Below are positions 1,119 to 42,365 of a stretch of DNA of 64,000 nt, piece by piece. The stretch is taken from the NCBI GenBank assembly GCA_028875725.1, contig JAPPCR010000023.1, positions 405,620-469,619 of the forward strand. The letters run 5' to 3'. Below the pieces are notes generated by a model that was not told the origin of the DNA, made no database searches, and was given only the letters and a program-made list of their open reading frames with translations. Numbering within the stretch: the first letter of the stretch is position 1; every line of letters begins with the position of its first letter. Both the position numbers and the translations under genes were made by a program. The stretch is from Acidobacteriota bacterium (GTDB taxonomy: Bacteria > Acidobacteriota > Thermoanaerobaculia > Multivoradales > Multivoraceae).

Positions 1119-2420
1119 CTACTCTTCCGACTGGTCCAGTTGCACGACGCCGTCGCTGAACTGCAGGGACTCGACGCCGCTCAGCGTGTCGACTCCGTCC
1201 CGGTCCGGCTGCGAGTCCGTCACCGTCGCACCGTCGCCGTCCGGCGTCACCTCGTAGTCGGCCGCCGGGCCGCTGAACACCGCGGTGTCGTCGCCGTCGC
1301 CACCGTTAAGCGTGTCGTTGCCGCCGCCGCCCTCGAGCCGGTTCGCGCCGGCGTTGCCGGTCAGCACGTTGTCATGAGCGTTTCCGCGGAGGCCCGCGTC
1401 GCCGTCGCCGGTGAGCGCGACGTTTCGCAGATGCTGCGTCTTCATCGTGTAGCGCACGTCCGGGTCGAACGTCATGGAGAAAGTGCCGCTGAAATCGAGC
1501 GGCAGCTCCGGCGTGTAGGCCAGGTGCGGCGGCACGAACTTCCCGATCAGGGCGAAGCCGAGTGGGTCGTCGTCGAGCATGGCGGACCTGCTGCCTGCGA
1601 AGTAGCGCCCGAAGTGCGACTGCCCATCGGGAATCTCGCCGGGTTCGATGTCCACGGCCTCGTACATGGTCGGCGGCACGGTCCAGAGGTCGTAGTAGTT
1701 GTCGATCAGCACGCCGACGTACTCGTTCGGGTGCTCCTGCGGCTCGTCGTCGGGCCAGCCGCGCCAGCCGTTCGCCTCGGCGACGTCGTTCGCCGCCCGC
1801 ATCTCGGCGATCATGTCCGGCAACGTCGGCTTGATCCCGTAGTCATGGATCAGGTGCCAGATCTCCTCGTACGAGGCATCGCGGGTGACGTGGGCCATGT
1901 AATCCGCGTCGCCCGGGGCCGGGCACTCGTTCGCCCGGAGGTCCTGCATGCTGAGATCGGTCGCCCCCGCCAGCCCGGATCGCATCGCGGCATTCAGTTC
2001 CTCTTCCGTGTTGAAGAAGACCATCGTCGCCTTGCGGTCCGCCATCGCGCTGGCGATGCCGCTCTTGTCGTCGCCGTACTCCGAGCCCGGGAAGTCGGTC
2101 AGCAGGTGCTCCATCACGTTCAGGCCGTGCTTGATCTGGTCGCGGGTCCAGATATCCGAGACCAGGAAGTGGATCCGCCTCCCGTCCGGCGTCGGCACGT
2201 AGGCGTAGCGGTTGAAGTGCTCGTGGAAGACCTCCGGCACGTCGGCCGGCAGGTCGACGATGCCATCAGGCGAACCCGACGTGTCGATGTCCGGCAGGGT
2301 GACGAGCTCTTTCGGAGCGCATGAGACCGCAAGCAGCGCTAGAACCGCAATCAGAACGCATGTACGAACCAATCTCACATCGGTCCGAGTCGACCTCACA
2401 TAGGTCCGAGTCAACTTCAT
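1119..2420 (-). CDS. secreted lipoprotein with C-terminal RTX (haemolysin-type) Ca-binding repeats; N-terminal domain of unknown function
   Basis: ATG at 2420 preceded by AGGAGAGACAG. Lipobox LAVSCAP. C-terminal GGxGxD nonapeptide repeats (GNAHDNVLTGNAGANRLEGGGGNDTLNGGDGDD). About 75% aa identity to CDS 2430..3680. Confidence 0.8.
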   Translation of the reverse strand: MKLTRTYVRSTRTDVRLVRTCVLIAVLALLAVSCAPKELVTLPDIDTSGSPDGIVDLPADVPEVFHEHFNRYAYVPTPDGRRIHFLVSDIWTRDQIKHGLNVMEHLLTDFPGSEYGDDKSGIASAMADRKATMVFFNTEEELNAAMRSGLAGATDLSMQDLRANECPAPGDADYMAHVTRDASYEEIWHLIHDYGIKPTLPDMIAEMRAANDVAEANGWRGWPDDEPQEHPNEYVGVLIDNYYDLWTVPPTMYEAVDIEPGEIPDGQSHFGRYFAGSRSAMLDDDPLGFALIGKFVPPHLAYTPELPLDFSGTFSMTFDPDVRYTMKTQHLRNVALTGDGDAGLRGNAHDNVLTGNAGANRLEGGGGNDTLNGGDGDDTAVFSGPAADYEVTPDGDGATVTDSQPDRDGVDTLSGVESLQFSDGVVQLDQSEE

Positions 2421-2429: not shown

Positions 2430-3680
2430 CTACTGTTCCAGTTGGACCGTCCCGTCGCTGAACTGCAGAGACTCGACGCCCCGCAGCGTGTCGACGCCGT
2501 CCCGGTCCGCTTGCGAGTCGGTCACCGTCGTTCCGTCCGCGTCGGTGGTGACTTCGTAGTCGGCCGCCGGGCCCGAGAAGACCGCCGTGTCGCTGCCTTC
2601 GCCGCCGTCCAGGGTGTCGTTGCCGCCGCCGCCCTCCAGCACGTTCGCGCCCCCGTTGCCGGTGAGCACGTTGTCGTAGGCGTTGCCCTGCAGGTCCGCG
2701 TCGCCGTTGCCGGTCAGCGCAACGTTTCGCAGATGCTGCGTCTTCATCGTGTACCGCACCTCCGGATCGAACGTCATCGAGAACGTCCCGCTGAAGTCCA
2801 GCGGCAGTTCCGGCGTGTAGGTCAGATGCGGCCCGACGAACCCCGTGACCAGCGCGTAGCCGGGCGGGTCCTTCTCCGGCATGGCCGCCCGGCTGCCGGC
2901 GAAGTACTGCCCGAAGTGAGAGTAGCCCTCGGGAATCTCGTCCGGCTCGATGGGGCGCCCCTCGTACACGGTCGGCGGCACGGTCCAGAGGTCGTAGTAG
3001 TTGTCGATCAGCGCGCCGACGTACTCGTTCGGATGATCGTCCGTCACCTCCCGGGGCCACGCGTACCAGCCCTTCTCCGCGGCCGCATCGTTCGCGGTTC
3101 TCATCTCGGCGATCATCTCCGGCAGCGTCGGCTTGATCCCGTAGTCGTGAATCACGTGCCAGATCTCCTCGTAGGCGGCGTCCCTGGTGACGTGACCCAT
3201 GTAGTCCGCGTCGCCCGGGGCGGGACACTCGTTCGCCCGCAGGTCCTGCATGCTGAGGTCCGTCGCCTCGGGCAACCCCTCGCTCATCGCCTGGCGCATG
3301 TCGGGTTCGGTGTCGAAGAAGACCATGGTCGCCTTGCGGTCCGCCATCGCGGCGGCAATTCCGCTCTTGTCGTCGCCGTAGACCGAGCCCGGGTGATCCG
3401 CCAGCAGGTGCTCCATGACGTTCAGGCCGTGCTTGATCTGGTCGCGGGTCCAGCCGGAAGAGACCAGGAAGTGGATTCGCCTGCCGTCCGGCGTCGGATG
3501 GTAGGCGTACCGGTCGAAGTACTTGTGGAACACCTCCGGCACGTCGGCCGGAAGGTCGACGATGCCGTCGGGCGAGCCCGAGGTGTCGATTTCCGGCAGG
3601 GTGACGAGTTCCTGCGGGGCGCAGGAGGCCAGCAGAAGGACCGCAACCGCGATCAGAGCCGACATCCGAATCAGCCTCAT
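2430..3680 (-). CDS. secreted lipoprotein with C-terminal RTX Ca-binding repeats (tandem paralog)
   Basis: MRLIRMSALIAVAVLLLASCAPQE gives a signal peptide and lipobox. C-terminal GNAYDNVLTGNGGANVLEGGGGNDTLDGGEGSD repeats. Confidence 0.8.
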   Translation of the reverse strand: MRLIRMSALIAVAVLLLASCAPQELVTLPEIDTSGSPDGIVDLPADVPEVFHKYFDRYAYHPTPDGRRIHFLVSSGWTRDQIKHGLNVMEHLLADHPGSVYGDDKSGIAAAMADRKATMVFFDTEPDMRQAMSEGLPEATDLSMQDLRANECPAPGDADYMGHVTRDAAYEEIWHVIHDYGIKPTLPEMIAEMRTANDAAAEKGWYAWPREVTDDHPNEYVGALIDNYYDLWTVPPTVYEGRPIEPDEIPEGYSHFGQYFAGSRAAMPEKDPPGYALVTGFVGPHLTYTPELPLDFSGTFSMTFDPEVRYTMKTQHLRNVALTGNGDADLQGNAYDNVLTGNGGANVLEGGGGNDTLDGGEGSDTAVFSGPAADYEVTTDADGTTVTDSQADRDGVDTLRGVESLQFSDGTVQLEQ

Positions 3681-3693
3681 CTGCGCCTCCCCT

Positions 3694-5010
3694 TCAGTCC
3701 TGCAGGTACAGCTCCCAGAAGCTGGCCTGACCCTCGTCCTGCGAGCGGTTCACGACCTTGCCGTCCTTGATCACCATGGACAGGCTGCGCAGGTGCGAGA
3801 TGTGCTCGAGCGGGTTCTTCTCGAGCACGATCAGGTCGGCGAGCTTGCCGACCTCGACCGTGCCCAGGTCGTCCAGCATGCCCATCATCTCGGCGCTATT
3901 GCGGGTCGCCGCCTGGATGGCGCCCATCGCCGGGATGCCGTGGAAGACGAACTGTTCGATCTCGAGAATCCCGATCTCCGAGATCGGGTTCGAGTCGCTG
4001 CCGGTGGTCAGGCGGATGCCCGCCGCGTATGCCTTGTTGATCACGTCGCGCGCGTGGTTCGCGTACTCCGGGCTCCGTTCGTCGGCGCGGGAGACCCGCA
4101 CCCGGCCTTCGATGACTTCCGGTGGCGCAACGTACCCGGCCTCCGCGATCAGCCGTTCCCGCTCGACGATGAACTCGTCGCTCAGGTTGCACTGGATCGT
4201 CGGGTCGAGGAACATCCCCGCCTCAGCCATCATCCGGATCGTGTCGTCGGAGAGGTCGTTGCCGTGCTCCATGCTCTCGGCGCCGGCCATAGCGCCGATC
4301 CGGGCCGTCCTGTCCCCGCCATGGATGGTGACCGGAACGCCGTGTCGATGCGCTTCCTCGATCCCGGCGATCAACTCCTCGGCCGGCATCCGGCTGCCCA
4401 GGAACTTGATGAGCTGGACCCCGTTCGCGATGTTGTCGGCGACGACCGCCCGGATCCCCTCCGGCCCCTTGCCGGTCCGAACCAGCCAGTCCGTGTCGCC
4501 GTCGGTCGAGAGCGGCGGGCCGCCGGCGACGATCCGCGGCCCGACGAAGGCGCCGGAATCGAACGCCTCCTTCCAGGCGACGTCGATGAAATCGCGGTCG
4601 CCGGTGATCCGCAGCGTCGTGAAGCCGGCCTTCAGCGCGTCGATCGCATTGCGGCCGGCCCGAATCATGGCCCGCGGCAGCGGTTCGTCCTCGAGCAGGC
4701 CCTTCGGGTCCGGCAGCAGGTCGCCGAGATGGGAGTGGTTGTTCCACAGGCCCGGCAGGACGTAGGCGCCGCCGAGGTCGAGGACGCGGCCATCGTCGCC
4801 GGGGTTCGGCGCGGAGGACGACGGCGTGTGGATCGCGGCGATCCGGTTGCCCTCGATGACGACCGCGGCGTCGTCGATCGGCGGCGCGCCGGTAGCGTCG
4901 ATGACGGTGGCGTTGGTGAGGACGGTCGTCTGGGCGGCGGCTGCGATGGGCAGCAGCAGAACGAGAGTTACCGGAAGAGCTCCGCGGGTCCTGTTTGTGT
5001 TCCGCTTCAT
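3694..5010 (-). CDS. secreted amidohydrolase-family metallohydrolase
   Basis: Signal peptide. HSH metal motif (LWNNHSHLGD). Conserved amidohydrolase C-terminal block (TGSDSNP...GKLADLIVL). Confidence 0.8.
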   Translation of the reverse strand: MKRNTNRTRGALPVTLVLLLPIAAAAQTTVLTNATVIDATGAPPIDDAAVVIEGNRIAAIHTPSSSAPNPGDDGRVLDLGGAYVLPGLWNNHSHLGDLLPDPKGLLEDEPLPRAMIRAGRNAIDALKAGFTTLRITGDRDFIDVAWKEAFDSGAFVGPRIVAGGPPLSTDGDTDWLVRTGKGPEGIRAVVADNIANGVQLIKFLGSRMPAEELIAGIEEAHRHGVPVTIHGGDRTARIGAMAGAESMEHGNDLSDDTIRMMAEAGMFLDPTIQCNLSDEFIVERERLIAEAGYVAPPEVIEGRVRVSRADERSPEYANHARDVINKAYAAGIRLTTGSDSNPISEIGILEIEQFVFHGIPAMGAIQAATRNSAEMMGMLDDLGTVEVGKLADLIVLEKNPLEHISHLRSLSMVIKDGKVVNRSQDEGQASFWELYLQD

Positions 5011-17996: not shown

Positions 17997-18002
17997 GAAC
18001 GA

Positions 18003-18734
18003 ATGGCTCTCGACGTTTACTTCAGCGCCACGCCCAACGGCTGGAAGATCTCGATCATGCTCGAGGAGCTGCGCGAGGCGGGAGTCGAACTGCCCGAGAC
18101 GCGCATCCACATGGTCGACCTCTCGGCCGGCGACCAGTTCACGCCCGAGTTCACCGCGATCAACCCGAACCAGAAGATGCCGGCCCTGGTGGATGACGGC
18201 CGCGCCGTCATGGAGAGCTGCGCCATCCTGCAGTACCTCGGCGAGAAGTACCCGACCCCGCTCTTCCCGACGGACGAGCGGCGCTGGGACGTCCTTCCCT
18301 GGCTCTACTGGCAGGCCGCCAATCTCGGCCCGGCCTTCGGCAACAAGCTGAGCTACACGCGTTACATCGACATTCCCGATGAACAGAAGGCCCATCCGCT
18401 GGAACGATTCGGCAGGGAGTCGCTGCGGCTGGTGGCGATTCTCGGCCGCCGGTTCGAGAAGCACCCCTACATCTGCGGGGACGACTTCACGGTCGCCGAT
18501 ATCTCCGTCTTCCCCTGGATCCGGGCGTACAAGTGGGCGAAGGTCGACATCACGACCCAGCCCGCCGTGGTCGACTGGCTGAAGCGCGTTCGAGCCCGCC
18601 CGGGCGTGGATCGCGGAGTCGCCTACGGCGTGCCGAAGGACGAGGTCGACAGCTTCAGCAAGGAGCGCCGGGAACGCTACAAGGCACGCGGCGCGCAGAT
18701 CGCCGCGAACGAGAATCTCCGGACGTCGGTCTGA
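18003..18734 (+). CDS. glutathione S-transferase family protein
   Basis: Thioredoxin-like N-terminus (SATPNGWKISIMLEE) and a GST C-terminal helical domain. Confidence 0.75.
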   Translation: MALDVYFSATPNGWKISIMLEELREAGVELPETRIHMVDLSAGDQFTPEFTAINPNQKMPALVDDGRAVMESCAILQYLGEKYPTPLFPTDERRWDVLPWLYWQAANLGPAFGNKLSYTRYIDIPDEQKAHPLERFGRESLRLVAILGRRFEKHPYICGDDFTVADISVFPWIRAYKWAKVDITTQPAVVDWLKRVRARPGVDRGVAYGVPKDEVDSFSKERRERYKARGAQIAANENLRTSV

Positions 18735-19116: not shown

Positions 19117-20739
19117 CTATCCGACGGCCTCAACGAGCCGTCGCAGCCCCGCTCCGACATCGCCGTCGAGGTGAACCGCGAGCACTCGGCGCTTTCGCTC
19201 CACCAACACCTCGTAGTCGCCCCACGCCTGAGCGAGCTGGACCTGGCCGAAGGTCAGGCTTTCCCCGGGGACCGGGATGTCCGCAGCCGGCGGCTCCGCA
19301 GTGATCTGGAGGAACAGGCCACGGTTCGGGCCGCCCTTGTGGGCCTGGCCCGTGGAGTGGAGAAAGCTCGGCCCGAAACCGAGAGCGGACGCGCCGCCTG
19401 TCGCACCGGCGATGCGCCGGCGCAGCGTCTGGAGCAACTCCTCGTTCGGGCCGCTCCGGTCCAGGTAGGCCGAGACGACGGCGTAGCCCCCCTCGGGAAA
19501 CGTCGCGACGTGGGTACCCAAGACTTCGGCCAGGCCGAGCGCACTGACGTCCCCCAATCGGACGACGCCGCTGGGCTCGGTCGTGTCACCTGCCCTGATC
19601 CGCTCGACGTAGCGCCGGGTAACGACCTTGGACGACTCCACGTCCGGCTGGTCGAAGGGGTTGACGCCCAGCAGTGCGCCGGCCACCGCCGTGGCGAACT
19701 GCCAGCGGAAGAACTCGCCGCCGAGGTCGGCGGCGACGTCGGCCCCGATGTGTGCCTGCGGCGCGTGTGCCGGTGCACCGTGGCTCGCACCGCTTCCGAG
19801 CACGATGTCGAGTCGGTCGGCGCTCGGCTCCGCCGGCAAGCCGGCCGCCGCCACCGGCAGCAGCAGCACGTCACCCTTGCCGAGCGATTCCGCGAGGAGC
19901 TGCTCCACCCAACCGACCATCTCCGAGCAACCGTCCGGCGCGTGGAGGTAGAGCTTGTCGCGGCCGCAGTCGTGCGCCGCGGCGAGCAGCAGGCCCAGTT
20001 CGACGCCGGCGTTCGTCTCGTCACCATCGTCCGACCGGCGGCAGGCGGCGGCCATTCGCCGTGCGCTCGCGAGCAGCGGTTCGCTTTCGATCCCGGCAAC
20101 CGCGGCCGGCACAAGACCGAACGCGGAGAGCACGGAGAACCGACCGCCGATGTCCGGGTGGCCGAAGACGACCCGCGCACCAGCGTCCCGGGCGCGCGTT
20201 TCCAGCGCCGAACCGGGATCGGTGATCGCCAGCGCGGAAACGGAAGCCGCATCGCCCAACCGGTCCAGCAGCAGTTCGAACGCCAGCTTCGTCTCGAGCG
20301 TGCCGCCCGACTTGGACGCGGCGATGACCCGAAGGTTCACCGGGTCGACTCCGTAGAGCGCGCGGGCGATCTCCCGAGGGTCCGTCGTGTCGAGGACGAT
20401 GAACTCCGCGTCGACCTGCCCCGGCAGCGCCTGCCACAGCAGGTCGGCGCCGAGCGCCGAGCCGCCCATGCCGAGCAGCAGGCAGCGTTCGAATGGCGGG
20501 CCGGCGAGGTGCCCGGCGAGCTTCGCGGCCTCCGTATCGGCGCGTTTGCCACTGGCGTCGACGAGCGTCAGCCGGCCCAGCCGTTCAACGTCCAGCCAGC
20601 CGAGCCACTCCTCCTCGCCCGAATCGGTCCAGAGCGAGCCGTCGCGGGACCAGAGCCGAGCGGTGCCGTTGACGTCGCGCCACTGTCGGCGACGGCGCTC
20701 CAACGCTGCGATGAGACTGGAGTCCGCCTCGACTTGCAT
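19117..20739 (-). CDS. pgi: glucose-6-phosphate isomerase
   Basis: PGI/SIS signatures GMGGSALG, ASKSGGTLET and HPDIGGRFSVLSAFG. Start placed at the internal ATG (MQVEADSSLIAAL...), 541 aa. Confidence 0.8.
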   Translation of the reverse strand: MQVEADSSLIAALERRRRQWRDVNGTARLWSRDGSLWTDSGEEEWLGWLDVERLGRLTLVDASGKRADTEAAKLAGHLAGPPFERCLLLGMGGSALGADLLWQALPGQVDAEFIVLDTTDPREIARALYGVDPVNLRVIAASKSGGTLETKLAFELLLDRLGDAASVSALAITDPGSALETRARDAGARVVFGHPDIGGRFSVLSAFGLVPAAVAGIESEPLLASARRMAAACRRSDDGDETNAGVELGLLLAAAHDCGRDKLYLHAPDGCSEMVGWVEQLLAESLGKGDVLLLPVAAAGLPAEPSADRLDIVLGSGASHGAPAHAPQAHIGADVAADLGGEFFRWQFATAVAGALLGVNPFDQPDVESSKVVTRRYVERIRAGDTTEPSGVVRLGDVSALGLAEVLGTHVATFPEGGYAVVSAYLDRSGPNEELLQTLRRRIAGATGGASALGFGPSFLHSTGQAHKGGPNRGLFLQITAEPPAADIPVPGESLTFGQVQLAQAWGDYEVLVERKRRVLAVHLDGDVGAGLRRLVEAVG

Positions 20740-20783: not shown

Positions 20784-21887
20784 TCAGGGCTCGAACCGCT
20801 CGGCGTAGTTCTCCGGACCCTCCGCGCGGATGTCGCTGAGCCAGTCCCCCTCGTAGGGCCATGCCTCCGGGTCATCCTCGCTCGGGCCCTGCCAGAACCG
20901 CGCAAACGGACCCTCGGCGCCACCTTCGAGCGACCAGGCCTGCCTGCGGAACGACCAACTGTCGGGTACCAGGCGGTGCGCCTCGCGGAAGTGGCGAATC
21001 GCCGCGTCGTGGTGACCCTTGAGCTCCAGGTGCGAGGCGAGCTCGAAGTGGGCATGTCCGAGGGACACATCCGCGTCGCGCGGCCGCGATCGCTCAACGA
21101 CTTCTTCCGGCGACAGCGCGAATCGACTCGCTGCGCCTTTCTCCACCCAATCGCGCAGCGCGAGGTGGTAGGCATCGGTGTCGGCCGGGATCTTCGCCGC
21201 TTCCTGCAGCATCTCGCCGAAGCGACCGGGAATCGGGGAGCGAGACCCCAGCTTCGGCGGGGCGCCCGCCGGCGGCGCCGGCGCGGCCTCCGCGGGCCGC
21301 ACGATCGTGCCCGACTCGTCGATCCAGACCGAGCTGGGGATGTTGATCACGCCGAAGACCCTGGCCAGCAGGTGGTGGCGATCGACCAGGGAGGGATGCT
21401 TCGGCTTCGCGGCCTCGATGAAGGCGCGGCAGCCCTCGGCCCCCAACGTGTCGAGACCGACCGTGACCAGTTCGAAGCCCTGCGGATGAAGCTCGTCGCG
21501 CAACGCCTGCCACCCGGGCAGGTGGGCCGAGCACCCTCAGTAGGGCGCCCAGGCGTAGACAACGACCTTCCGCCCGCGCAGGCTCGAGAGCCTGAACGGC
21601 TTCCCGTCGAGATCCGGCAGTTCGAAGTCCGCGTCCTCGGCCGACACGATCGCCCGCGACCCGAGCGACTCGGGGCCCAGCGCCCACACGCCGTGCTCCT
21701 CGTCATGTACGACCGGCAGACCGATCGCCTCGGCAACGGCAAGCCCGTCGATCGGGCCCGACGACGCCGGAGCGCGATCGAAGAGAGGCACGCAGGCTGA
21801 ACCTTTGCAGGCGCCCTCTGGTTTGAGAGCCCAGCCCGTGCCGGCCTCGAACGACGTCCTGGACACTCTCTTGTCTGTGAGGATCAT
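20784..21887 (-). CDS. TlpA-like thioredoxin-fold protein with C-terminal TPR-like region; single in-frame TGA at the redox-active position (candidate selenocysteine, otherwise a pseudogene)
   Basis: ORFs 21537..21887 and 20784..21503 are in the same frame, separated only by TGA 21537-21539. Read-through gives ...FELPDLDGKPFRLSSLRGRKVVVYAWAPY-[UGA]-GCSAHLPGW..., and the TGA falls exactly where the first Cys of the thioredoxin W-C-x-x-C motif sits. Confidence 0.55.
21504..21528 (-). promoter_or_regulatory. candidate bacterial SECIS-like hairpin 15-33 nt downstream of the in-frame UGA
   Basis: mRNA ...UGA GGGUGCUCGGCCCA CCUGCC CGGGU GGCAGG CG. This is a perfect 6-bp GC stem with a 5-nt G-rich apical loop (alternative stem CCACC/GGUGG). 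Confidence 0.3.
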
Positions 21888-21945: not shown

Positions 21946-23082
21946 ATGGCCCGCGCACCCTCAGCCGGCCCCACCCAACGGCCGCGAATCGCCACGACGG
22001 CGGGCCTGCTCGTGCTGGCCGCTCTTGCCTTCCTGGTGGGCTCCCGCTGGCAGGGCAACGTGCTCCAGGCGGAGAGCCAGGGCCAGCCCCGGCGCGTGAC
22101 GCCAAGTTCGGGGCTGCTCCCCGAGGAACGCGCGACGGTCAACCTGTTCCGCGAGACGCAGCCGTCGGTCGTCTACATCACGACACTGGCCAGGCAGAGT
22201 CGGGTCGACTTTCTGGGACGTCGCTTCGACCGCGTCCAGGACGGCACGGGAAGCGGCTTCCTGTGGGACGACAGAGGCCACGTCGTCACGAACTTCCACG
22301 TGATCGGGAACGCCGATACCTACCAGGTCACCCTCCACGACCAGACGACCTGGCCCGCCACGTTCGTCGGACAAGACGAGGAGATGGATCTCGCAGTGCT
22401 CCGAATCGAGGCGCCGGCGGAGACGCTGCGGCCCATCCCGGTCGGCTCGTCGAGCGACCTGCAGGTCGGCCAGTCGGTACTGGCGATCGGCAACCCGTTC
22501 GGCCTCGACTACACGCTGACCACCGGCGTGATCAGCGCACTCGACCGCGAGGTTCTGTCAATCGGCCGACGCGAGCTCCAGGGGGTCATCCAGACCGACG
22601 CCGCGATCAACCCGGGCAACTCCGGCGGTCCGCTCCTCGACTCGAGCGGACGGCTGATCGGCGTCAACACGCAGATCGTGTCGTCCGGCGGCGCCTGGGC
22701 CGGTATCGGCTTCGCGATTCCGGTCGACACGGTGAACTGGGTTGTGCCGGAGCTCATAGCCCACGGCCGCGTCAACCGTCCGCAGCTCGGGGTCTCCCTG
22801 GTGGAGGGTGCCCGTGTGCGGCCGCAAGTGGACGGTGTACTGGTCCTGGAAGTCGTCCGGAACTCCGGCGCAGACCGCGCGGGGCTCCGCCCCACCCGGC
22901 GCACGCGACAGGGCATCGTCCTCGGCGACGTGATCACCGCGATCGAAGGCCAGCCGGTTCAGTCGGTCAGCGACATCCGGGCGCTGCTGGAACGGCAGCA
23001 GCCGGGCGACTCGGTCACGGTGAGCCTGCTCCGCGGCGACGAGGAGGCCGAGGCGGAAGTGCGCCTCTCCGCACCGCGCTAG
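21946..23082 (+). CDS. HtrA/DegP-family serine protease with PDZ domain
   Basis: GNSGGPLL catalytic Ser motif. His and Asp blocks (TNFHV, DLAVLRI). C-terminal PDZ. Confidence 0.85.
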   Translation: MARAPSAGPTQRPRIATTAGLLVLAALAFLVGSRWQGNVLQAESQGQPRRVTPSSGLLPEERATVNLFRETQPSVVYITTLARQSRVDFLGRRFDRVQDGTGSGFLWDDRGHVVTNFHVIGNADTYQVTLHDQTTWPATFVGQDEEMDLAVLRIEAPAETLRPIPVGSSSDLQVGQSVLAIGNPFGLDYTLTTGVISALDREVLSIGRRELQGVIQTDAAINPGNSGGPLLDSSGRLIGVNTQIVSSGGAWAGIGFAIPVDTVNWVVPELIAHGRVNRPQLGVSLVEGARVRPQVDGVLVLEVVRNSGADRAGLRPTRRTRQGIVLGDVITAIEGQPVQSVSDIRALLERQQPGDSVTVSLLRGDEEAEAEVRLSAPR

Positions 23083-23148: not shown

Positions 23149-23177
23149 TTGACAAGAACTGAGAATCGATTATCGTC
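23149..23177 (+). promoter_or_regulatory. fur promoter (TTGACA-16-TATCGT) overlapped by a Fur-box-like 14-bp palindrome GAGAATCGATTATC
   Basis: A perfect -35 hexamer at 23149-23154 and a -10-like TATCGT at 23171-23176, with ATG 23185 about 7-10 nt downstream. The palindrome at 23161-23174 has a perfect AATCGATT core and resembles GATAAT-N-ATTATC Fur half-sites. Confidence 0.45.
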
Positions 23178-23184
23178 TCTCCCC

Positions 23185-23553
23185 ATGCGAAGAGCCAGGC
23201 AGCAGCAGACCGTCCTCAGCGCCCTTGACGAAGCGGACGGTCCCCTGTCCGCCAGGGAACTGTGGAGCCGCCTGAGCGGAACGGGCGTCGGTCTCGCCAC
23301 GGTGTACCGCGCTCTCCAACGGGGTGTTGAGGAAGGCACGCTGGAGGCGGTCGAGGTGCTGGGCGGCGGGCTGCGGTACGAGCCCAGGGACCGCGAGCAC
23401 CACCATCACTTTCTCTGCTCGAGCTGCGACCGCGCGTTCGACCTCTTCGGTTGCGTCGAGGGCCTCGAGGACCTGCTTCCAGGCGGGTTTCAGATGACCG
23501 GACACGAGGTGGTGTTGCTCGGAACCTGCGATGGGTGTGCCGATGCGGCGTGA
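23185..23553 (+). CDS. fur: Fur-family transcriptional regulator
   Basis: HHHHFLC..C...C..C metal-site pattern with a winged-helix N-terminus. ATG at 23185 lies roughly 7-10 nt downstream of a TTGACA-16-TATCGT promoter, so the transcript is probably leaderless. Confidence 0.8.
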   Translation: MRRARQQQTVLSALDEADGPLSARELWSRLSGTGVGLATVYRALQRGVEEGTLEAVEVLGGGLRYEPRDREHHHHFLCSSCDRAFDLFGCVEGLEDLLPGGFQMTGHEVVLLGTCDGCADAA

Positions 23554-32003: not shown

Positions 32004-32516
32004 ATGGCGATCGCCTTCACGCTGAATGGCAAGTCGACGACGGTCGATGCGCCGCCGGAGATGCCCCTGCTCTGGGTCCTCCGCGACGAACTCGACCTCA
32101 AGGGCACGAAGTTCGGCTGCGGCCGGTCCTTCTGCGGGGCCTGCACCGTGCATGTCGACGGCGAGCCGGAGCGCAGTTGCCGCATGCCGGTCTCGCGGGC
32201 CGAGGGCAAGGAGATCACGACGATCGAGGGCCTGTCCGAGGACGGCGCCCATCCCGTGCAGCTCGCCTGGCAGGAGATCGACGTACCGCAGTGCGGCTAC
32301 TGCCAGGCCGGCCAGATCATGTCGGCGTCGGCGCTCCTCGCGAGCAACCCGCAGCCCACTGACGGCGACATCGACGAAGCGATGAGCGGGAACATCTGCC
32401 GCTGCGCGACCTACATCCGCATCCGCGCCGCCATCCACCGCGCCGCGGACATCGCGCAGGGTCCACCGGCCACCAGCCACGAGACGGCCACGGGAGCGGG
32501 AGGGAGTGAGGCATGA
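32004..32516 (+). CDS. molybdo-hydroxylase [2Fe-2S] small subunit (CoxS/IorA-like)
   Basis: CGRSFCGAC plant-type cluster and QCGYC...NICRCATY second cluster. Confidence 0.85.
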
Positions 32517-34732
32517 ACGCCGTGGACAAGACAGGCAACCTCTCCCGGCGCGGCTTCCTTCACGTCACCGCCCTGGCCGGCGGCGGCATGCTCCTCGGAG
32601 CCCGCTTCCCGCTGGACGGCGCGCGCGGCGCCTTTGCCGCCACCGCCGATGCGGAGACGGCGCTCAACGCGTTCATCCGCCTGACGCCGGACGGCATCGC
32701 GACGATCATGGCCCAGAACCCCGAGATCGGTCAGGGCGTCAAGACGATGCTGCCGATGCTCATCGCCGAAGAGCTCGACATCCCCTGGAGCCAGGTGCGC
32801 GTCGAGCAGGCGGACTTCGACGCGACGAAGTACCGCGGCCAGATGGCCGGCGGCAGCATGGCCACGCCGATGCACTACGAGTCGATGCGCCGCGTGGGCG
32901 CCGCCGCCCGCGCCATGCTCGTCGAAGCCGCGGCGAAGGAGTGGAAGACGAAGCCCGAGAAGTGCACCACCGAGGCCGGCGCCGTCCACTTCAAGAACAA
33001 GTCGCTCTCCTACGGCGAGCTGGCGAGCGCCGCGGCCGGGATCGAGCCGCCGAATCCCCGGACCGTCCCGCTCAAGGACGCGAAGGACTTCAGGATCATC
33101 GGCCAGGAAGTCCCCGGCGTCGACAACCCGCAGATCGTCACCGGCAAGCCGCTCTTCGGCATCGACGTCACCGTGCCCGGCATGAAGTACGCCGTGTTCG
33201 AGAAGTGCCGGGTCCACGGCGGCAAGGTGAAGAGCGCCAATCTCGACGCGGTCAAGGCGTCGCCCGGTGTTGTTGACGCCTTCGTCGTCGACTCGACCGC
33301 TCAGGCCGCGCCCGCGCCCTCGATGTTTCAGGTCGGGCTGCCAAACGGCATCGCCATCGTCGGCGACTCCTGGTGGCTGATCAACGAGGCCCGAGGCAAG
33401 CTGGAGGTCACCTGGGACGAGGGCCCGACCGCGTCCCAGAGCACCGCAGCGTTCGACCGGCAGGCCGAGGAGCTGTCGAAGCAGGCGCCGGAACAGGATC
33501 TCAGGAACGACGGCGACGCGGCCGGCGCCCTGGCCTCCGCGGCGAAGACGGTCAAGGCCGCCTACCAGTACCCCTTCCTCGCCCATGCGCCGCTCGAGCC
33601 GCAGAACACGACCGCACACTTCCACGATGGCGGGCTCGAGATGTGGGCGCCGATCCAGACTCCACAGTTCGCGCGCGGAGACCTGGCCAAGGCGCTGGGC
33701 ATTCCCGACGACAGGATCACGATCCACCTGACCCGGATGGGAGGGGGCTTCGGGAGGCGCCTGTACTGGGACTACATGCTCGAGGCGGCGCTGATCGCGC
33801 GGCAGGCGGGAGTTCCGGTCAAGCTGGTGTGGAACCGCGAGGACGACACGCGTTTCGACTACTTCCGCCCCGGCGGCTACCACTATCTGCAGGGCGGTCT
33901 CGACGAGGCCGGCAACCTGACAGCGTGGCGCGACCACTTCGTCAGCTTCGGCGAGGGCCGGCGGTTCGCCCCGAGCGCCGAGATGATGCCGAACGAGTTC
34001 CCGCAGGGCTTCGTACCGAACTTCGCGCTCCAGGCGTCGAAGATGCCGCTCGGCATCCCGACCGGGGCTCTGCGCGCTCCGACCAGCAACGCGATCTCCT
34101 TCGTCGTCCAGTCGTTCATCGACGAACTGGCGGCGGAGGCCGGCAAGGACCCGCTCCAGTTCCGGCTCGACCTGCTCGACTCGGCTCCGGCCGGGACCAG
34201 GACCGCGTTCGATCCGCAGAGGATGAAGGCCGTGCTCGAACTCGTGCGCGACAAGTCGGGTTGGGCCAAGGCGGACCTGCCCGAGGGCACCGGCCAGGGC
34301 GTCGCGTTCCACTTCAGCCACCGCGGCTACTTCGCCGAAGTCGTCCAGGCCACCGTCAGCAAGGAGGGTGAACTCGGCGTCGACAGGATCTGGGTCGCCG
34401 GCGACGTCGGCCGGCAGCTCGTCAACCCGAGCAACGCCGTCAACCAGGTCCAGGGGGCGGCGCTAGACGGCCTCGGCCAGGCGCTCGACCAGGAGATCAC
34501 CTTCGACCGCGGCCGCACGAACGAGAGCAACTTCCACAACTTCAAGCTGCTCCGCATCGACCAGGCGCCGCCGGTGGAGGTGCACTGGGTGATGAGCGAC
34601 AACCAGCCCACCGGCCTGGGTGAGCCCGCGCTGCCGCCGGTCCCGCCGGCCCTGTGCAACGCGATCTTCGCCGTCACCGGCAAGCGGATCCGGTCGCTGC
34701 CGATCTCGAAGCACGACCTGAGCTGGGCCTGA
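32513..34732 (+). CDS. molybdopterin-dependent oxidoreductase large subunit (IorB/aldehyde oxidase family), Tat-secreted
   Basis: Tat motif SRRGFLHV. Xanthine dehydrogenase/aldehyde oxidase a/b hammerhead and MoCo-binding blocks. ATGA start overlap with the small subunit. Confidence 0.8.
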
Positions 34733-34738
34733 CCGCCT

Positions 34739-35317
34739 GTGCGCAACATCGCCATCGCAGCAGCCCTCATCCTCCTGATCGCGGCCTTCGTCGCCGTTGC
34801 CCAACAGTCGGACGACGCCAAGCCGTCGCTAGACGGCATGGCCGTCCCCACGTACACCGCCGCCGGGGACCTCATCCGCCCCGACGGCTACCGCACCTGG
34901 ATCTTCGTAGGCGCCTCCCTCGGCCTCAGCTACAACGAAGACGCCGCCGAGCGCGAAGGCCCGGGCGCCTTCACCAACGTCTACATCCAGCCGGAGGCCT
35001 ACCGCTACTTCATGGCGACCGGCGAGTTCCCCGAGGGAACCATGCTCCCCATGGACATCTTCCGCCCCGGCTCCCGCGAGTCCATCAACCAGGCCGGCTA
35101 CTTCGAGAAGGACTTCCTCGGGATGGAGGTCGCGGTCAAGGACAGCGAGCGCTACCCCGAAGGCTGGGCCTACCTCAGCTTCCGCGACCGGTCCGGAGGG
35201 CTGAGGGAGTCGGCGTCAGCGTTCCCGAAGGACCGGTGCTACGACTGTCACGCGGAGCATGCGGCGACCGACAATGTGTTCACGCAGTTCTATCCGGTGT
35301 TGCAGCGGGGGGAGTAG
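34739..35317 (+). CDS. cytochrome P460 / c'-beta-like monohaem cytochrome (probable electron acceptor of the Mo enzyme)
   Basis: Signal peptide. Single CxxCH (CYDCH) near the C-terminus, as in the P460 family. Confidence 0.55.
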   Translation: MRNIAIAAALILLIAAFVAVAQQSDDAKPSLDGMAVPTYTAAGDLIRPDGYRTWIFVGASLGLSYNEDAAEREGPGAFTNVYIQPEAYRYFMATGEFPEGTMLPMDIFRPGSRESINQAGYFEKDFLGMEVAVKDSERYPEGWAYLSFRDRSGGLRESASAFPKDRCYDCHAEHAATDNVFTQFYPVLQRGE

Positions 35318-36445: not shown

Positions 36446-37105
36446 CTAGTTCCTAGCCACCCGTGCCACTTCCGACGAAGCCTTGCAGGCCAAGACTGTC
36501 TGCACTAGCCTGATCCCCGAGTTGCGCGCAGCGCTAGAGACTAGCAAGTACTGGAACAGTAGAGCCGACAGGTACCACAAGGCTGGCTGCAACCGCTCCG
36601 CCCGGAGTAGCGCCATTGGGCCACCCACGGCGAGAATCAATACTGCCGCCGAAGTCCAATCGCGAGAGAGAAGATACGTCCGGTGAATCTGCCTCACCCG
36701 ATCATCGTCCTGTAACTCGTGGTACCAGCGATACCAAAGGGCGTTCTGCGCAGAGGGGTCGGTAGGCAGGGGACTTTGGTGTTCTAGCAACGCATCGCGG
36801 TCGATTCTGGGGTCGGCACCCATGTGCTTAGTGAACGCTCGACACCCCGGCAAGGCGTGCCGCCATCTCCAGAACACCAATCTCGTCTTTGTCTCGGTGC
36901 TTACGACTTCGCTCAACACTCCGACGAGTAGCACCAACACGCTGAGCGGTAGCAAGTCAGCCCGGGCCTCACTAAGCGTCTGCCATACCTCAGCCAAACT
37001 CCTCACCTCAAAGCTCGTGTACGCCACGAGAACGTACGCCAAGACGTTACCCAGCCAAACTGTGACTAGAGCGGGCGCGTTCCTGTCTTTGAGTGTAATC
37101 GGCAC
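36446..37105 (-). CDS. hypothetical integral membrane protein
   Basis: Four or five hydrophobic helices. Lower-GC island DNA. No recognisable motif. Confidence 0.5.
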
Positions 37106-39878
37106 GGGTCGGTCGGTTGGCCAAAGGTCGGCAACCTACCATGTTGCCCACGCCAGCCGCACGTTCACCAGCAGCCGCAAGAAGCGAGTCACGGCGCGCG
37201 GCAGAGGCACTTCCGGTAGGCCGACGCCGGGTGGCGACTCTGAGGGCCTTGAACTCGTGGACCCGGCAGTTTCCACTCGGGCTTCGGCGCAGCTTGCGAC
37301 CGACTACTCTGCCACTCACGGTTGCCCGTCCACTTGCTCGGTAGAAGGGCACCACCCTCACACCGCCGCGGCCGACACGCCATCTTGGTGAAGCCTCGCG
37401 GTCCGCCACTCCCACCGGCTGAAAACGGGGACGCTCCCCACGAGGACTAGCCGCGAACCGCTCACCGCTCCGCGACAGGGCGTAGCGTGTGTAAACGGCC
37501 ATGCCGGGGCCGATGGCCGCCTGGGCGAGGTCGACAGGGGCGACGTTGCCGGATTGCAGGAGGCGAAGAGCACGGGGGAGTTCGGCGCGTAGTGCGGCCA
37601 GAAGCTCACGACGAGTGGCGAGCGGAGCATCGGCCGGGCGTGGCCGACAGACGAGGACGATGCTGGACGCGAGGAGGTTGGCACCCATTCCGATCTTGTT
37701 CAAGAGTTCCGTACGCACAGGCCAAGTGCCGGTGATGGCGAACCCGGAGCGCATCACCGCGTCTAGGAACGTCTCCCATCCCGTGCTGACGGTGCCGGTC
37801 TCCCTCTTCGTTTCGGACTGCTTGAAGGCGTAGTAGATCGTTACGGGGGAGCTGGGATGCGCCTGCTCGACGAGCCGCTTCATGGCCTGCGTCATGCCGT
37901 CGAGGAAGAACTCCTCCGCCTGCTGCTTGCCGCCGTGACGGTAGGGGCTAGCGATGAGCTCCTCGACCTTCGGCACAGCCATGGTCGAGAACAAGTCGGG
38001 GAAGATCGGTCCTAGTGAACGTCGGAGCCAGACATAGAAGAAGTCCGATAGGTCCGCGTAGCCGATGTTGTCGTAGTACGGCGGGTCCGTCGAGATCGTT
38101 CGGGCGGGCCCACCAAAGAGCGAGCTTGCTTGAGCGCTCCCCTGCTTCGCTGATCCTCTCCCAGAGGATGGCAGCCTCTCCAGCGCCTTGACCATGTTCT
38201 CGAGGCTGACCATGTAGTCACCTGCGAAGCCGCCAAAGACGTTGTTCTCGGCAAAGTCCCAGATCATGGGGATTGCTTGCCGTCCGAACAGATTTCGAAC
38301 CTGGGTCTTCGTGACCTCCCAACGACATAGCGCATTGCAGATGTCCGAGAGCCGACTGAGCGCTACCCCAAGATACACCCCTACCGCCTCGGCATACGCG
38401 GTCGCACCGGTGCCGCCGTCGCGCAGTGGTCGGCCGTCGTTGGGAAGACCGGCGGCCGCCGCGTCGAGGCGAACGCGCTCCGTCGCCTCCCCGACTAGGT
38501 CGGAGAAAGTCGTCAGGGCGACGAGCTGGCGGGGGGTGAAGAGGTCCGCCCAAGTAGTTAGCCCGTAAGGTACGCACGTTCCTCCCGTTAGCCGAGCCGG
38601 GACATCACCCTCCGGGATCCACGCAGGGCGTGCCTTTGCCGGTGCTCCCACATGTTCCCCCATGGGTTTGAGGTAGACGCGGCCGCGGTCGCCTTCCGCG
38701 ACCACAGCCATCAACCGGGCACCCATCCGGCCAGCCTGGCCTTCGGCCTTGATGTGGTCTCCACCGATCGGTGTGCCCGACATGAGGCAACGGAACGTCC
38801 CGCGGGAGAGTTTGGTCCCCGACTTCGTAGTCTCTCTGTCCGCCGGTAGCCCGGCTTTGACCGCGAAACGGTAGCCCCGGCCCTCGATCATGGGGTCGAC
38901 GTACGCTTCCTTCCCCTTCTTCGTGGACAGCATGAACGTCGAGACGAGCGGCACCTCTTCGTCGGCGTATGCGGGGTTCGGACTCCTCACCGTTCGCGCC
39001 CACAGCCAAGCGATCACGTTCAGTCTTCGACCTTGGTACTGCACCAAGTCGGGCCGTTCCTGGACCACCTCCGATGTGATCTCAACCTGCGGATAGAGAT
39101 GCCCAATCCGTTTCTGGGCCTCTTCCCGCATCCAGCGGCCGTAGTAGCGCACGTCCTCTGCCAGACCCTGCGCACCGGACCATTGACTCGCAACGAGCGT
39201 CGAATCACTCTTCGACTCGGGGTTCACCGGCGGCCAGGCGGCGAACTTCGGCGGGATCTCGAGCATCGCTTTGCAGATCAGCACGGCCACCGGGTTTAGG
39301 TCGCTTGCATGTGCCTCAAGGCCCAGCCGCTGGGCTTCCAGCGGTAGCGCACCTCCGCCGGCGAACGGATCGTGGAATGCCGGCAGCTTGTGGCGGTCGA
39401 ACAGTTCCTTCGCCTGCGGATGATCTGCGTTCTCCGCGCAGGTGCGCCGCCAGCTCAGCCAGATCTCGCCCCTTGCCTGCTCCAAGAGCTCCTCGTTGGT
39501 CGTGTTCTCCCACTTCACGAGTTCTCTGAGAATCCCGAACAACCGCTCCCGTTCAAGCTCCGCCGCGACCTCGGCCAGTGCCAACTGGTCGGCGGCGGTG
39601 GGGGTCCCGCTGTCCGTCTGCCCACCCTTAGCCCGCCGCTTCTTCAGCTCTCTTCGGGCCGCGCGGCTCTTCGCCGGATCCGACAGCAGCACGTCAACGT
39701 ACTCCGACGGGTCATCCACCATCTGCGCGAAGAGGACAGCCCGCGCCGCCGCCAAGGGCCGTCGCGCCCACCATAGATGCAAGGTTGACGGATGTCCGTG
39801 CCGTATCGACTTCTCCCGTGCGGAGGCTGCGTTGATTGCAGCCAGCGGCAACGCGACCTCGATCAGCTTCCTGCTCAC
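37047..39878 (-). CDS. DUF1156-domain DNA methyltransferase, truncated paralog (C-terminal ~190 aa replaced by non-homologous Arg-rich read-through; possibly a pseudogene)
   Basis: Residues from the GTG at 39878 ([41 protein letters not shown]...) are about 85% identical to the 42853..45849 MTase up to ...AVYTRYA. Beyond that the frame gives [21 protein letters not shown]... and overlaps the membrane-protein gene. No ATG aligns with the paralog start. Confidence 0.55.
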
Positions 39879-40080
39879 GCCAGACCTGTAAACGACTTCT
39901 TCTTGAGGGGCGCTTCGGCGAGGCGTTGGGGCTTCGGCGTGGCGCGAGGTTGGCCATGCTAGCCCAACCGGTTTCGGCTTCAAGCCAGTCCTCCGGTGCC
40001 GGTCTTGATGTCTACTAGCCCGTTTGGGCTTGGGCTCTTGCCCTCGGTCCGCGAGTGAATGAAAGCAGGAGGACGTCAGA

Positions 40081-41016
40081 ATGCAAGACCACCGATCAAG
40101 ATCCCAGCGGGCGACCACGTCAGAGTCGCACCCGCAGAATCCGGGAGACCAATCCGCCCTTGGTTCCACTGCGCCCTTCAAAGTAGTCGCAGAAACGGTC
40201 TTTCGCCGCTACGGACGCTCCTGGAAGCCAGGGACGGCGGCTGTAAACCGCTCGTACCTCCGAAACCAGATCATGCCGTGGTTCAACCAGCGCCCCATCG
40301 CGGGCATCGCCCACGAGGACGTTCAGCTCTGGTTCTCTTCTCTGAGGTCGACGCCTGCGGCGGCGAATCGAGCGCTGCCCGTCCTCTCGGTGATCATGCG
40401 TCAGGCCGAGATCTACGGTTACCGACCGGAGAACAGCAATCCTTGCTCGGGTATCCGGCGCTATCGGTGCCCTAGTCGGGAGCGGTTCCTTACTCTGCCG
40501 GAAGTTCGGCGCCTTGGCGGAGCGCTGGCTGATCTAGAAGCCTCGGTGCTTCGACCCGCCGCGGCAATCCGTCTGCTGCTCCTGACCGGCTGCCGACAAG
40601 GAGAAATCAGGACTCTCCAATGGGGTGACTACCGAGCAGGCCACCTCTTCCTGCGCGACGGTAAGGCGGGACCCAGGATGGTCTGGCTGTCTTCGCCGGC
40701 GCGCCAGGTGCTGGGCCGCCTTCCGCGCAGCGATCGTTGGGTGTTCCCTGCCCTGCGCCGCCCAGGGCCCATGCGTTCTGACGCGCTTCATCGCTACTGG
40801 CGGGCACTTCGCGAGATGGCGGATCTCCGGGACGTGCGGCTGCACGACCTGCGCCACAGCTACGCGAGCATCGCCCTCCAGCAGGGTGAGACCATTCCAA
40901 CGATCGGCCGCCTCTTGGGGCATCGCGACCCGGTAACGACACTTCGTTACACGCACTTCGCCGACGCCTCGGTCCTTGAGGCGGTCGAGGCCGTGGGCAA
41001 CGTGCTGGGGGTCTGA
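40081..41016 (+). CDS. tyrosine site-specific recombinase (XerC/D-like phage integrase family)
   Basis: C-terminal catalytic box [15 protein letters not shown]...[15 protein letters not shown] (R..HxxR..Y). Confidence 0.8.
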
Positions 41017-42365
41017 TGCTGATGCCGACTTTCCGGGACTTCGTGCAGGGCCCCTGGAGGGAAGCCTGCTACGAGCGCTGCAAAGCGTCCACAAAGGCGC
41101 GGGTGGACAGCGCCCTGGGCGCACAGCTGTTGCCGACCTTCGGCCACTTACCCCTGGACGCGATAACGGCGGGAGATGTACACGCTTGGTTCGATCGCTA
41201 CAGCGAGAGAGCGCCCGGCGGCGCAAACCGCACGCTCGATGTCCTACGACAGATCCTGAACCACGCTGTCGCGTGTGGGCACCAAGACGCTAACCCCGCC
41301 CGTGGCATCGTGCGCAACGCGAGCCCGCTACGTACCCGCTTCCTCTCGCGAACCGAGGTTGCGCGCTTGCGCGCGGCACTCAGTGCGCATCGGGGGCGAG
41401 AGTCCGGCCGGCAACAGGCCGACATCATTCGCCTGCTGCTGCTTACAGGTTGCAGAAAGGGAGAGCTCGTTGGGCTCAGGTGGTCGGAGGTGAGCGAGGG
41501 CACACTGCGGCTACATGACAGCAAGACGGGCCCACGCTTGGTGTACCTGAACGACCAAGCGCAGCGCATACTCAGCCGCCAGCCGCGCAACGGCAGCCCG
41601 TTCGTCTTCCCATCGCTTTCCGACTCGTCGAAGCCCCGCTCCTCGGAGTTGTCCCTTTGGCGCAAGGTAAGGCGGGAAGCCCGGATCGAGGAGGTGCGTC
41701 TACACGATCTCCGTCACACGTTCGCGAGCCACGCTGTCATGCAGGGAGTGCCCTTGCCGGTCGTGTCGCGGCTGCTCGGCCACAGCCGCTCTCGAATGAG
41801 CCTTCGCTACGCACATGCGGGTGACCGGGAAACCGAGGCCGCCGCCGAGCGCATCGGCACCGCCCTTGCCTCGGTTCTTGGCGTGCCGACCGACGAGGAG
41901 AAAGTCGGGCTCGTGCCGGGGGAGAAGATTGGAACGTCTATCAGAACGGAGGCTCCCAATGCGCGCCCGGGTCGCGCGGCGACCGCTGCTAGGATCTCCT
42001 CCCCACTCGCACGCCGACAAGACCGCGCTGCCAACACGCTGGCTAGGGCGGTCGAGCGGAAGTGGCCGCACGACTCCCGCATGCACTCCTTGATCGAATC
42101 CCACCGGACTGAGATACGAGCCGTTGCTGGCCGCCACGGTTTCGAGGACGTGCGCGTGTTCGGCTCCATGGCCCGAGGGGACGCAGACGAGGGGAGCGAC
42201 GTGGATCTGCTCGTGACCCTGCCGAAGGGCCAGAGCGGCTTGGCCCTGGGAGCGTTGCTGATGGACGTCCAGGACCTGTTGGGGCGGCGAGTAGACGTGG
42301 TAACGGAGCGTAGTCTGCACCCCGATCTTCGGCACCGGATTCTGGAAGAAGCCCAGATCCTGTGA
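41016..42365 (+). CDS. tyrosine recombinase (second tandem copy) read-through fused to an MntA-type nucleotidyltransferase
   Basis: HDLRHTFASHAVMQG...LLGHSRSRMSLRYAH integrase box. No stop before the MNT domain. TGATG overlap with the upstream integrase. Confidence 0.65.
   Translation: MLMPTFRDFVQGPWREACYERCKASTKARVDSALGAQLLPTFGHLPLDAITAGDVHAWFDRYSERAPGGANRTLDVLRQILNHAVACGHQDANPARGIVRNASPLRTRFLSRTEVARLRAALSAHRGRESGRQQADIIRLLLLTGCRKGELVGLRWSEVSEGTLRLHDSKTGPRLVYLNDQAQRILSRQPRNGSPFVFPSLSDSSKPRSSELSLWRKVRREARIEEVRLHDLRHTFASHAVMQGVPLPVVSRLLGHSRSRMSLRYAHAGDRETEAAAERIGTALASVLGVPTDEEKVGLVPGEKIGTSIRTEAPNARPGRAATAARISSPLARRQDRAANTLARAVERKWPHDSRMHSLIESHRTEIRAVAGRHGFEDVRVFGSMARGDADEGSDVDLLVTLPKGQSGLALGALLMDVQDLLGRRVDVVTERSLHPDLRHRILEEAQIL
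42081..42365 (+). CDS. mntA: MntA-like minimal nucleotidyltransferase antitoxin (nested in-frame in the integrase ORF)
   Basis: GSMARGDADEGSDVDLLV is the GS-x9-13-DxD NTase motif. Internal ATG at 42081. 94 aa. Followed by hepT with a 4-nt overlap. Confidence 0.6.
   Translation: MHSLIESHRTEIRAVAGRHGFEDVRVFGSMARGDADEGSDVDLLVTLPKGQSGLALGALLMDVQDLLGRRVDVVTERSLHPDLRHRILEEAQIL

Follow-up and report, generated by a model that had tools for sequence, protein, structure and literature searches.

An in-frame TGA at the active site of a ResA/TlpA-like thioredoxin-fold protein from a member of the Acidobacteriota is very probably a selenocysteine codon

The locus and its reading frame

A stretch of 64,000 nucleotides from an Acidobacteriota bacterium (contig JAPPCR010000023.1 of assembly GCA_028875725.1, positions 405,620 to 469,619 of the forward strand), called the window in the following, carries on its minus strand a thioredoxin-like gene with a single in-frame TGA codon at its presumed active site. 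The original prediction, made from the letters of the window, had proposed that this codon may specify selenocysteine (Sec), and the comparative analysis described here makes this reading very probable. The elements of the gene, all on the minus strand and in window coordinates, are given below with the observations on which each assignment is based in brackets. The hairpin listed is a candidate for the selenocysteine insertion sequence (SECIS) and TPR stands for tetratricopeptide repeat.

20784..21887, minus strand: predicted complete selenoprotein gene of 367 codons including Sec117, plus the terminal TGA (frame, match to NCBIfam NF041054, 80 full-length orthologous loci)
21537..21539, minus strand: in-frame TGA, read as the codon of Sec117 (ortholog column, Cys orthologs, alignment to PDB entry 3kcm)
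21531..21533, minus strand: codon (TGC) of Cys119, the presumed resolving cysteine of U-G-C (counterpart in 3kcm: C-terminal Cys of CxxC)
21506..21522, minus strand: candidate bacterial SECIS core with a 6-bp stem CCUGCC/GGCAGG and the loop CGGGU (stem begins 14 nt past the UGA)
21648..21887, minus strand: N-terminal domain of about 80 amino acids, fold unassigned, with the invariant pair Cys27/Cys32 (C-x4-C) (no Pfam match, cysteine conservation)
21807-21809 and 21792-21794, minus strand: codons of Cys27 and Cys32, respectively (kept in 83 of 84 sequences)
21297..21632, minus strand: ResA/TlpA-like thioredoxin-fold domain, amino acids 86-197, with WAPY-U-GC and Cys153 (Pfam, PDB profile, fold matches)
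21429-21431, minus strand: codon of the conserved Cys153 (alignment of orthologs)
20787..21227, minus strand: C-terminal all-helical domain, about amino acids 221-367 (predicted helices, predicted local distance difference test score (pLDDT) 80-94)
20961-21053, minus strand: single TPR-like repeat, amino acids 279-309 (Pfam TPR_2 at 3.2e-4, PDB matches to TPR proteins at 275-309)

The gene occupies one single frame, which runs from an ATG at 21887-21885 through 116 codons to the lone internal TGA and from there through 250 codons to a terminal TGA at 20786-20784. Translation confirmed that the two open reading frames (ORFs) from which the original prediction had started share this frame and are separated only by the TGA at 21537-21539. 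The TTG at 21503, which had been remarked upon as a start rendered as methionine, is merely the first start-like codon met by the ORF finder after the stop and not a conserved start. Around the internal stop the translation reads ...RGRKVVVYAWAPY-TGA-GCSAHLPGWQALRDELHPQGFELVTVGLD..., in the wider context VVVYAWAPY-TGA-GCSAHLPGWQALRDEL..., which yields the motif W-A-P-Y-[TGA]-G-C and, upon read-through, the peptide WAPY-U-GCSAHLPGWQALR spanning the Sec position.

In public gene calls the locus appears as a pair of "hypothetical" ORFs, 116 and 239 amino acids long. When the N-terminal 116 residues were used for a protein database search, 1562 clusters matched, and among the best 120 of these nearly all were 113-125 amino acids long, as is expected where annotation stops at the UGA. 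Considerably more than a thousand metagenomic relatives thus appear to be mis-split in the same way, the correct product being one selenoprotein of 367 residues.

Family membership, domains and active site

For searches of domain databases the internal stop was substituted by Cys. The resulting protein matched the NCBIfam model NF041054 (WAxxUGC_long), an equivalog model for a "ResA-like WAxxUGC motif-containing protein", with an E-value of 1e-146 and 488.8 bits at a cutoff of 300, and the alignment extended from end to end (protein residues 1-366, model positions 1-353 of 354). In Pfam, AhpC-TSA (1.4e-14) and Redoxin (2.9e-11) were found over residues 86-196, and the TPR_2 match to the C-terminal domain stayed below the Pfam cutoff. 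The NCBIfam models for ResA, TlpA, StoA, DsbE and BCP gave weak matches far below their cutoffs. The thioredoxin-fold domain is joined to the C-terminal helical domain by a linker rich in proline and alanine (amino acids 198-220). The conserved cysteines of the protein, with Sec counted among them, are Cys27, Cys32, Sec117, Cys119 and Cys153. As no hydrophobic segment was detected (the highest 19-residue Kyte-Doolittle mean was 1.14), the protein is probably soluble and cytoplasmic, unlike ResA and TlpA.

A profile built from 23 orthologs was used to search the sequences in the PDB, and matched 3kcm (1.7e-17), ResA (4nmu and 1st9) and TlpA (1jfu). In the alignment to 3kcm the orthologs' "waPycG.c" is placed over "WATWCPpC", so that Sec117 aligns with the N-terminal, nucleophilic Cys of W-C-x-x-C and the spacer is one residue shorter. 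The proposed TlpA-like thioredoxin identity was thus borne out by NF041054, the PDB profile and the fold matches described below, and the proposed replacement of the first active-site cysteine by the TGA is what the alignment to 3kcm displays. The unusual U-G-C motif of the original prediction also stood, and can be specified further as a U-x-C which is one residue shorter than C-x-x-C.

Structural models were calculated with AlphaFold2. The model of the Cys-containing ortholog P0001, with only C-terminal fragments in the alignment, reached a pLDDT of 71 and a predicted template modelling score of 0.69, with pLDDT values of 72-94 across the thioredoxin and C-terminal domains. The C-G-C of this model is located between a strand (104-110) and a helix (117-133), which is the canonical active-site position. 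Upon comparison of the model to the PDB with Foldseek, ResA, DsbE, 3kcm, StoA, DsbF and TlpA ranked first, the top matches having a target TM score of about 0.70 and a root mean square deviation of 2.2-2.4 A, and Bcp peroxiredoxins ranked lower. In an earlier model the N-terminal fragment was misaligned, the overall pLDDT was 53 and only residues 1-50 attained values of 74-89; adding more N-terminal fragments to the input made the alignment worse. The N-terminal domain is modelled inconsistently between the two.

Conservation of the TGA and coding constraint

Orthologs were collected by one scan of the GTDB species-representative genomes, which yielded 80 orthologous loci. About 30 of these come from metagenome-assembled genomes (MAGs) of Acidobacteriota with 69-95% identity, many of them from sponges, including Holophagales SB06xx, Ca. 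Multivorans and Thermoanaerobaculia. Orthologs with 90-94% identity are present on the closed Ca. Multivorans chromosomes OZ242353.1 and OZ244786.1. The others belong to Gamma-, Beta- and Alphaproteobacteria (about 57-69% identity) and to Acidimicrobiales and Ilumatobacteraceae (55-62%). The alignment of homologs at the TGA column, which had been suggested as a check, gave a uniform result: all 80 loci, from three phyla and at 55-95% identity, carry TGA at the Sec column in the context W[A/S]PY-TGA-GC, and in all 80 the frame is intact across the TGA with no indels nearby. Only three rare orthologs (P0001-P0003, corresponding to L081-L083, 62-66% identical) have a cysteine there. They are full-length, continuous single proteins with the motif WAPYCGC, and their codons at this column, read from the fetched contigs, are TGC, TGC and TGT. 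Over all 84 sequences Cys119 is invariant.

Coding constraint was examined on either side of the TGA. Across 31 orthologs from Acidobacteriota, variable sites account for fractions of 0.45/0.42/0.93 of codon positions 1/2/3 before the TGA and of 0.36/0.26/0.84 after it. A comparison of the window with a single ortholog (L008) counted 27 synonymous and 6 nonsynonymous changes upstream, and 39 and 15 downstream. Judged from these substitution patterns, both sides are protein-coding in the same frame and under purifying selection.

A hairpin downstream of the TGA

The original prediction had pointed to a GC-rich 6-bp stem with a CGGGU loop at a SECIS-like position downstream of the TGA. Stem, loop and position are as described, and only the span had to be corrected, from +15 to +33 to +15 to +31: the hairpin CCUGCC-CGGGU-GGCAGG comprises 17 nt (21522-21506, minus strand). 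Folding of the region downstream of the TGA, another of the checks suggested at the outset, gave an energy of -9.3 kcal/mol. Published criteria for bacterial SECIS elements (bSECIS) are a loop of 3-9 nt, a stem of 4-16 bp, a G within the first two loop positions, a spacing of 16-37 nt between UGA and loop, and a minimum free energy of at most -7.5 kcal/mol (PMC13188914, Fig. 2 legend). The hairpin agrees with these, having a loop of 5 nt (CG[G/U]GU), a stem of 6 bp and a distance of 20 nt between UGA and loop.

Constraint on the hairpin at the RNA level was assessed from codon entropies in the alignment of the 81 Sec forms, which has 280 informative codons. Only three of these codons lack synonymous variation, and all three are contained in the hairpin (Pro124 CCC in 80/80, Val125 GTG in 53/53 and Gln127 CAG in 70/70). 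The lowest 5-codon window of the whole gene, codons 122-127, has a normalised codon entropy of 0.118 as compared to a gene mean of 0.648. Stem pairs with changes on both sides numbered 3, as compared to 0.3 in shuffles, and 0-1 of 500 shuffles reached the observed values; the compensatory changes were from C-G to U-A at two positions and from G-C to C-G at one. Pairing was lost when the partner columns were slid. A possible seventh stem pair (17-35) was discarded as unsupported by covariation. All three Cys forms have CCG for Pro124, where 80/80 Sec forms have CCC, and the outermost 3' base of the stem is altered in them, which fits a relaxed RNA constraint. Taken together, these comparisons support RNA-level selection on the hairpin.

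The 17-nt hairpin hardly differs between the phyla, and when L029-L079 are compared with the window, protein identity between the Acidobacteriota orthologs and the proteobacterial ones is about 57-69%, which is high for a comparison across phyla. Because of these two observations a joint horizontal spread of the gene and its putative SECIS element is suggested.

Weighing the selenocysteine assignment

On this comparative evidence we consider with high confidence that the internal TGA is a genuine Sec codon in a ResA/TlpA-like WAxxUGC selenoprotein. Several observations weigh against this assignment. Neither selA, selB, selD nor a gene for tRNA-Sec was found in the 64-kb window by ARAGORN, Rfam and tblastn with E. 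coli SelA/SelB/SelD, in agreement with the original prediction, which had seen none of them there; the only tRNA genes in the window are those for tRNA-Gln and tRNA-Ser. The +/-3-kb flanks of the Acidobacteriota orthologs likewise contain no sel genes and no tRNA-Sec. The folding energy of the hairpin is unexceptional for 67% G+C (z = 0.68 against shuffles), and since it is not significant the weight was put on conservation among orthologs instead. The stem covaries to a modest degree (4 cells in 3 pairs), its top 3 bp being invariant. A part of the stem is imposed by the invariant peptide L-P-x-W-Q, which is kept in the Cys forms too. These Cys forms share 79-81% identity among themselves, and their common change from CCC to CCG may represent a single event. 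Finally, neither experimental selenium incorporation nor another experimental characterisation was found for the UGC family in the literature searched, the reviews listing computational predictions. In favour of the assignment, a single one among the 83 related loci has Sec machinery adjacent, which links the gene directly to the Sec system in that genome. This is a Burkholderiales MAG (L035, JANXWR010000584.1) in which a partial selA (3-815), selB (845-2749), a tRNA-Sec gene (2807-2897; Rfam RF01852, 72.4 bits) and the ortholog (3001-4098) follow each other in the same direction.

Three other explanations were considered. Sequence data alone cannot identify the residue inserted at a UGA, so that one of the standard residues Trp, Cys and Gly might also be inserted, by near-cognate decoding or an altered code. 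This is very unlikely, as orthologs have Cys in place of the UGA at a redox-active site, the hairpin downstream of it fits the bSECIS model, and selA, selB and tRNA-Sec adjoin the gene in the Burkholderiales MAG. In addition the three phyla involved use the standard code, and TGA is otherwise a normal stop which terminates many genes of the window, this gene included, so that a genome-wide reassignment is ruled out.

Even less probable is that the locus consists of two genes, one for an N-terminal protein of 116 amino acids and one for a separately started C-terminal protein of about 240, which together would form a split thioredoxin fold. Automatic annotation calls the locus in this way, and start-like codons do occur soon after the TGA. 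The downstream "start" varies in position, however, being a TTG at R130 in the window and a methionine at W126 in other taxa (an ATG at "MWQ"), and the split would fall between beta3 and alpha1 and thereby sever the thioredoxin fold right at its active site. The Cys orthologs are uninterrupted proteins, and the frame is kept over the TGA, free of indels, in every one of the 80 loci.

A recent nonsense mutation turning a Cys-containing TlpA-like gene into a pseudogene, which the original prediction had named as its strain-specific alternative, has a negligible probability: a single stop at the Cys position is what a point mutation from TGC or TGT to TGA would produce, public annotation has two ORFs here, of 116 and 239 amino acids, and Sec machinery is missing from the window, but this explanation is refuted by the TGA in the same column of 80/80 orthologs from three phyla (whose proteins diverge by as much as 45%, so that they are not copies of one contaminant) and by the purifying selection on both sides of it, and is further opposed by the selection on synonymous sites in the hairpin and by the match to the curated selenoprotein model NF041054.

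Proposed mechanism and implications

If the TGA is a Sec codon, a ribosome arriving at UGA117 would be met by the hairpin 14 nt downstream, which would recruit SelB with GTP and Sec-tRNA(Sec), leading to insertion of selenocysteine and not to termination. This scheme is proposed on account of the established bacterial pathway and the comparative evidence. The terminal TGA of the gene, which is not followed by such a hairpin, would stop translation. By analogy to the chemistry of ResA and TlpA, Sec117 at the start of helix alpha1 may attack a substrate in its oxidised form (for example a disulfide, sulfenic acid or peroxide). The adduct would then be resolved by Cys119 with formation of a tight U-G-C selenenylsulfide, to be reduced again by Cys27/Cys32, by Cys153 or by thioredoxin. 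The TPR-like helical domain at the C-terminus might bind a partner or client protein.

A more speculative reading, which we regard as rather unlikely, is that the long WAxxUGC protein represents a new type of cytoplasmic selenoenzyme and not another thiol-disulfide reductase. A strained U-G-C would act on a client recruited by the TPR and would be recycled by the N-terminal C-x4-C, forming a self-contained Sec relay, and a horizontal spread of SECIS and gene as one module would account for the near-identity of the 17-nt SECIS in three phyla and for the 65-69% protein identity of Acidobacteriota and Proteobacteria. With respect to the client such an enzyme could be an isomerase, or a reductase acting on sulfenic acids, persulfides or peroxides.

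The assignment of the TGA as a Sec codon implies that the sponge-type Acidobacteriota lineage (MAGs resembling Ca. Multivorans and Thermoanaerobaculia) uses selenocysteine. Its practical value is a corrected annotation. As U-x-C is an uncommon redox motif and the family is known from computational prediction, the protein is a reasonable though non-urgent target for characterisation.

Neighbouring genes and other features of the window

The genes surrounding the predicted selenoprotein gene are the following.

17997-18731, plus strand: glutathione S-transferase
19120-20739, minus strand: phosphoglucose isomerase (PGI), 45 nt downstream of the gene and on the same strand
21946-23079, plus strand: HtrA-like serine protease with a PDZ domain, divergent
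23149-23550, plus strand: Fur-family regulator

This order of neighbours is conserved only within close Acidobacteriota relatives, and therefore no functional partner could be deduced from the context. An apparent linkage to PGI in 14 loci from outside the Acidobacteriota was rejected, as it had arisen artefactually from ORFs in other frames that overlap the target gene.

Two observations were made next to orthologs in other genomes. In an Acidimicrobiales MAG (L078), ARAGORN called an unusually long tRNA-Pro(GGG) of 94 nt (2667-2760, minus strand) at about 240 nt upstream from the ortholog, where Rfam gave neither a tRNA nor a tRNA-Sec at the gathering threshold; this could be a spurious prediction or else an aberrant tRNA-like element. 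In L083, one of the Cys forms, a gene fragment (1602-1817, plus strand) follows the ortholog and contains a Molybdop_Fe4S4 domain like that of enzymes of the formate dehydrogenase type; the contig ends at this fragment.

The window was also searched for a second selenoprotein gene by looking for ORF pairs of the same frame joined by a TGA among segments with high GC3. The sole other pair (32510-34732 and 34733-35317, plus strand) was dismissed, as it consists of two ordinary genes.

32510-34732, plus strand: large subunit of a Mo-hydroxylase (MoCoBD_1/2) with a twin-arginine-like N-terminus
34733-35317, plus strand: cytochrome P460

Between 36000 and 58400 the G+C content is lower than in the surroundings (0.62-0.65 versus 0.68-0.70), and this region adjoins a tRNA-Ser(GCU) gene at 58241-58332. 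Judging from the genes listed here, it looks like an integrated island for defence or of a restriction-modification-like kind.

37050-40181 and 42853-45846: two DUF1156 proteins
41016-42362: phage-type integrase fused to a nucleotidyltransferase domain
46355-49666: HEPN_Swt1+DUF499 protein
49734-53306: SNF2/DEAD helicase with NOV_C
55125-56312: phage-type integrase

Comparison with known systems

As in the bSECISearch model and in E. coli fdhF, the hairpin is a stem-loop located right after the UGA inside the coding region. It matches the G followed by G or U at loop positions 2-3 of the bSECISearch model, whereas its sequence is unrelated to the SECIS of E. coli fdhF, and no conserved bulge or lower stem, as compared to bacterial SECIS elements, was detected in it.

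The protein shares the thioredoxin-fold subfamily of ResA, TlpA, DsbE (CcmG) and StoA (1st9, 1su9, 4nmu, 3gl3, 3kcm and 1jfu; E-values of 1e-12 to 1e-17), and its active site likewise follows a conserved Trp-Ala. It differs from this group by the U-G-C replacing C-x-x-C, with Sec for the first Cys and a spacer shorter by one, by additional N- and C-terminal domains, and in having neither a signal peptide nor a membrane anchor, the ResA/TlpA group being extracytoplasmic. The NCBIfam cutoffs are not reached for ResA (50 versus 170 bits) or TlpA (41 versus 230). With peroxiredoxins (Prx) it has the AhpC-TSA Pfam domain in common. Their motif P-x-x-x-T/S-x-x-C is absent, the protein having P-Y-U-G-C, which lacks a Thr or Ser at the third position ahead of the Cys, and the scores are 22 versus 140 bits for BCP and 16 versus 260 for PrxQ. 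Judged by motif, predicted location and score cutoffs, the protein falls outside ResA/TlpA proper as well as outside the peroxiredoxins.

The Prx-like thiol:disulfide oxidoreductase selenoproteins with UxxC or UxxU belong to the same pfam00578 and have Sec at the first redox position. The spacing of UxxC differs from that of UGC, which is why the two are treated as separate subfamilies in reviews (PMC9312934). A UGC family has been described repeatedly, as "Prx-like (UGC-containing)" in the Global Ocean Sampling (GOS) selenoproteome paper of 2008 (PMC2398784), as "UGC-containing Prx-like protein" in a review of 2022 (PMC9312934) and again in a review of 2026 (PMC13188914). A literature search for "WAxxUGC" gave no papers, the family having been published under these other names. 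With its pfam00578 domain, UGC Sec motif, Cys homologs and occurrence in aquatic metagenomes the published family matches the protein described here, although the papers define it by domain and motif only, and their example proteins MBL6689828.1 and MDE0950781.1 may differ in the long architecture with its N-terminal C-x4-C domain and TPR-like C-terminus. The suffix "_long" in the name of NF041054 may mean that shorter forms exist. This model, which carries no experimentally tested function, has the W-A-x-x-U-G-C motif found here as WAPY-U-GC and the same three-part architecture, and no difference to it could be detected. Since NF041054 is matched and the family is listed in earlier selenoprotein papers, the finding is not new, and the gene belongs to a selenoprotein family which had been predicted computationally and catalogued before.

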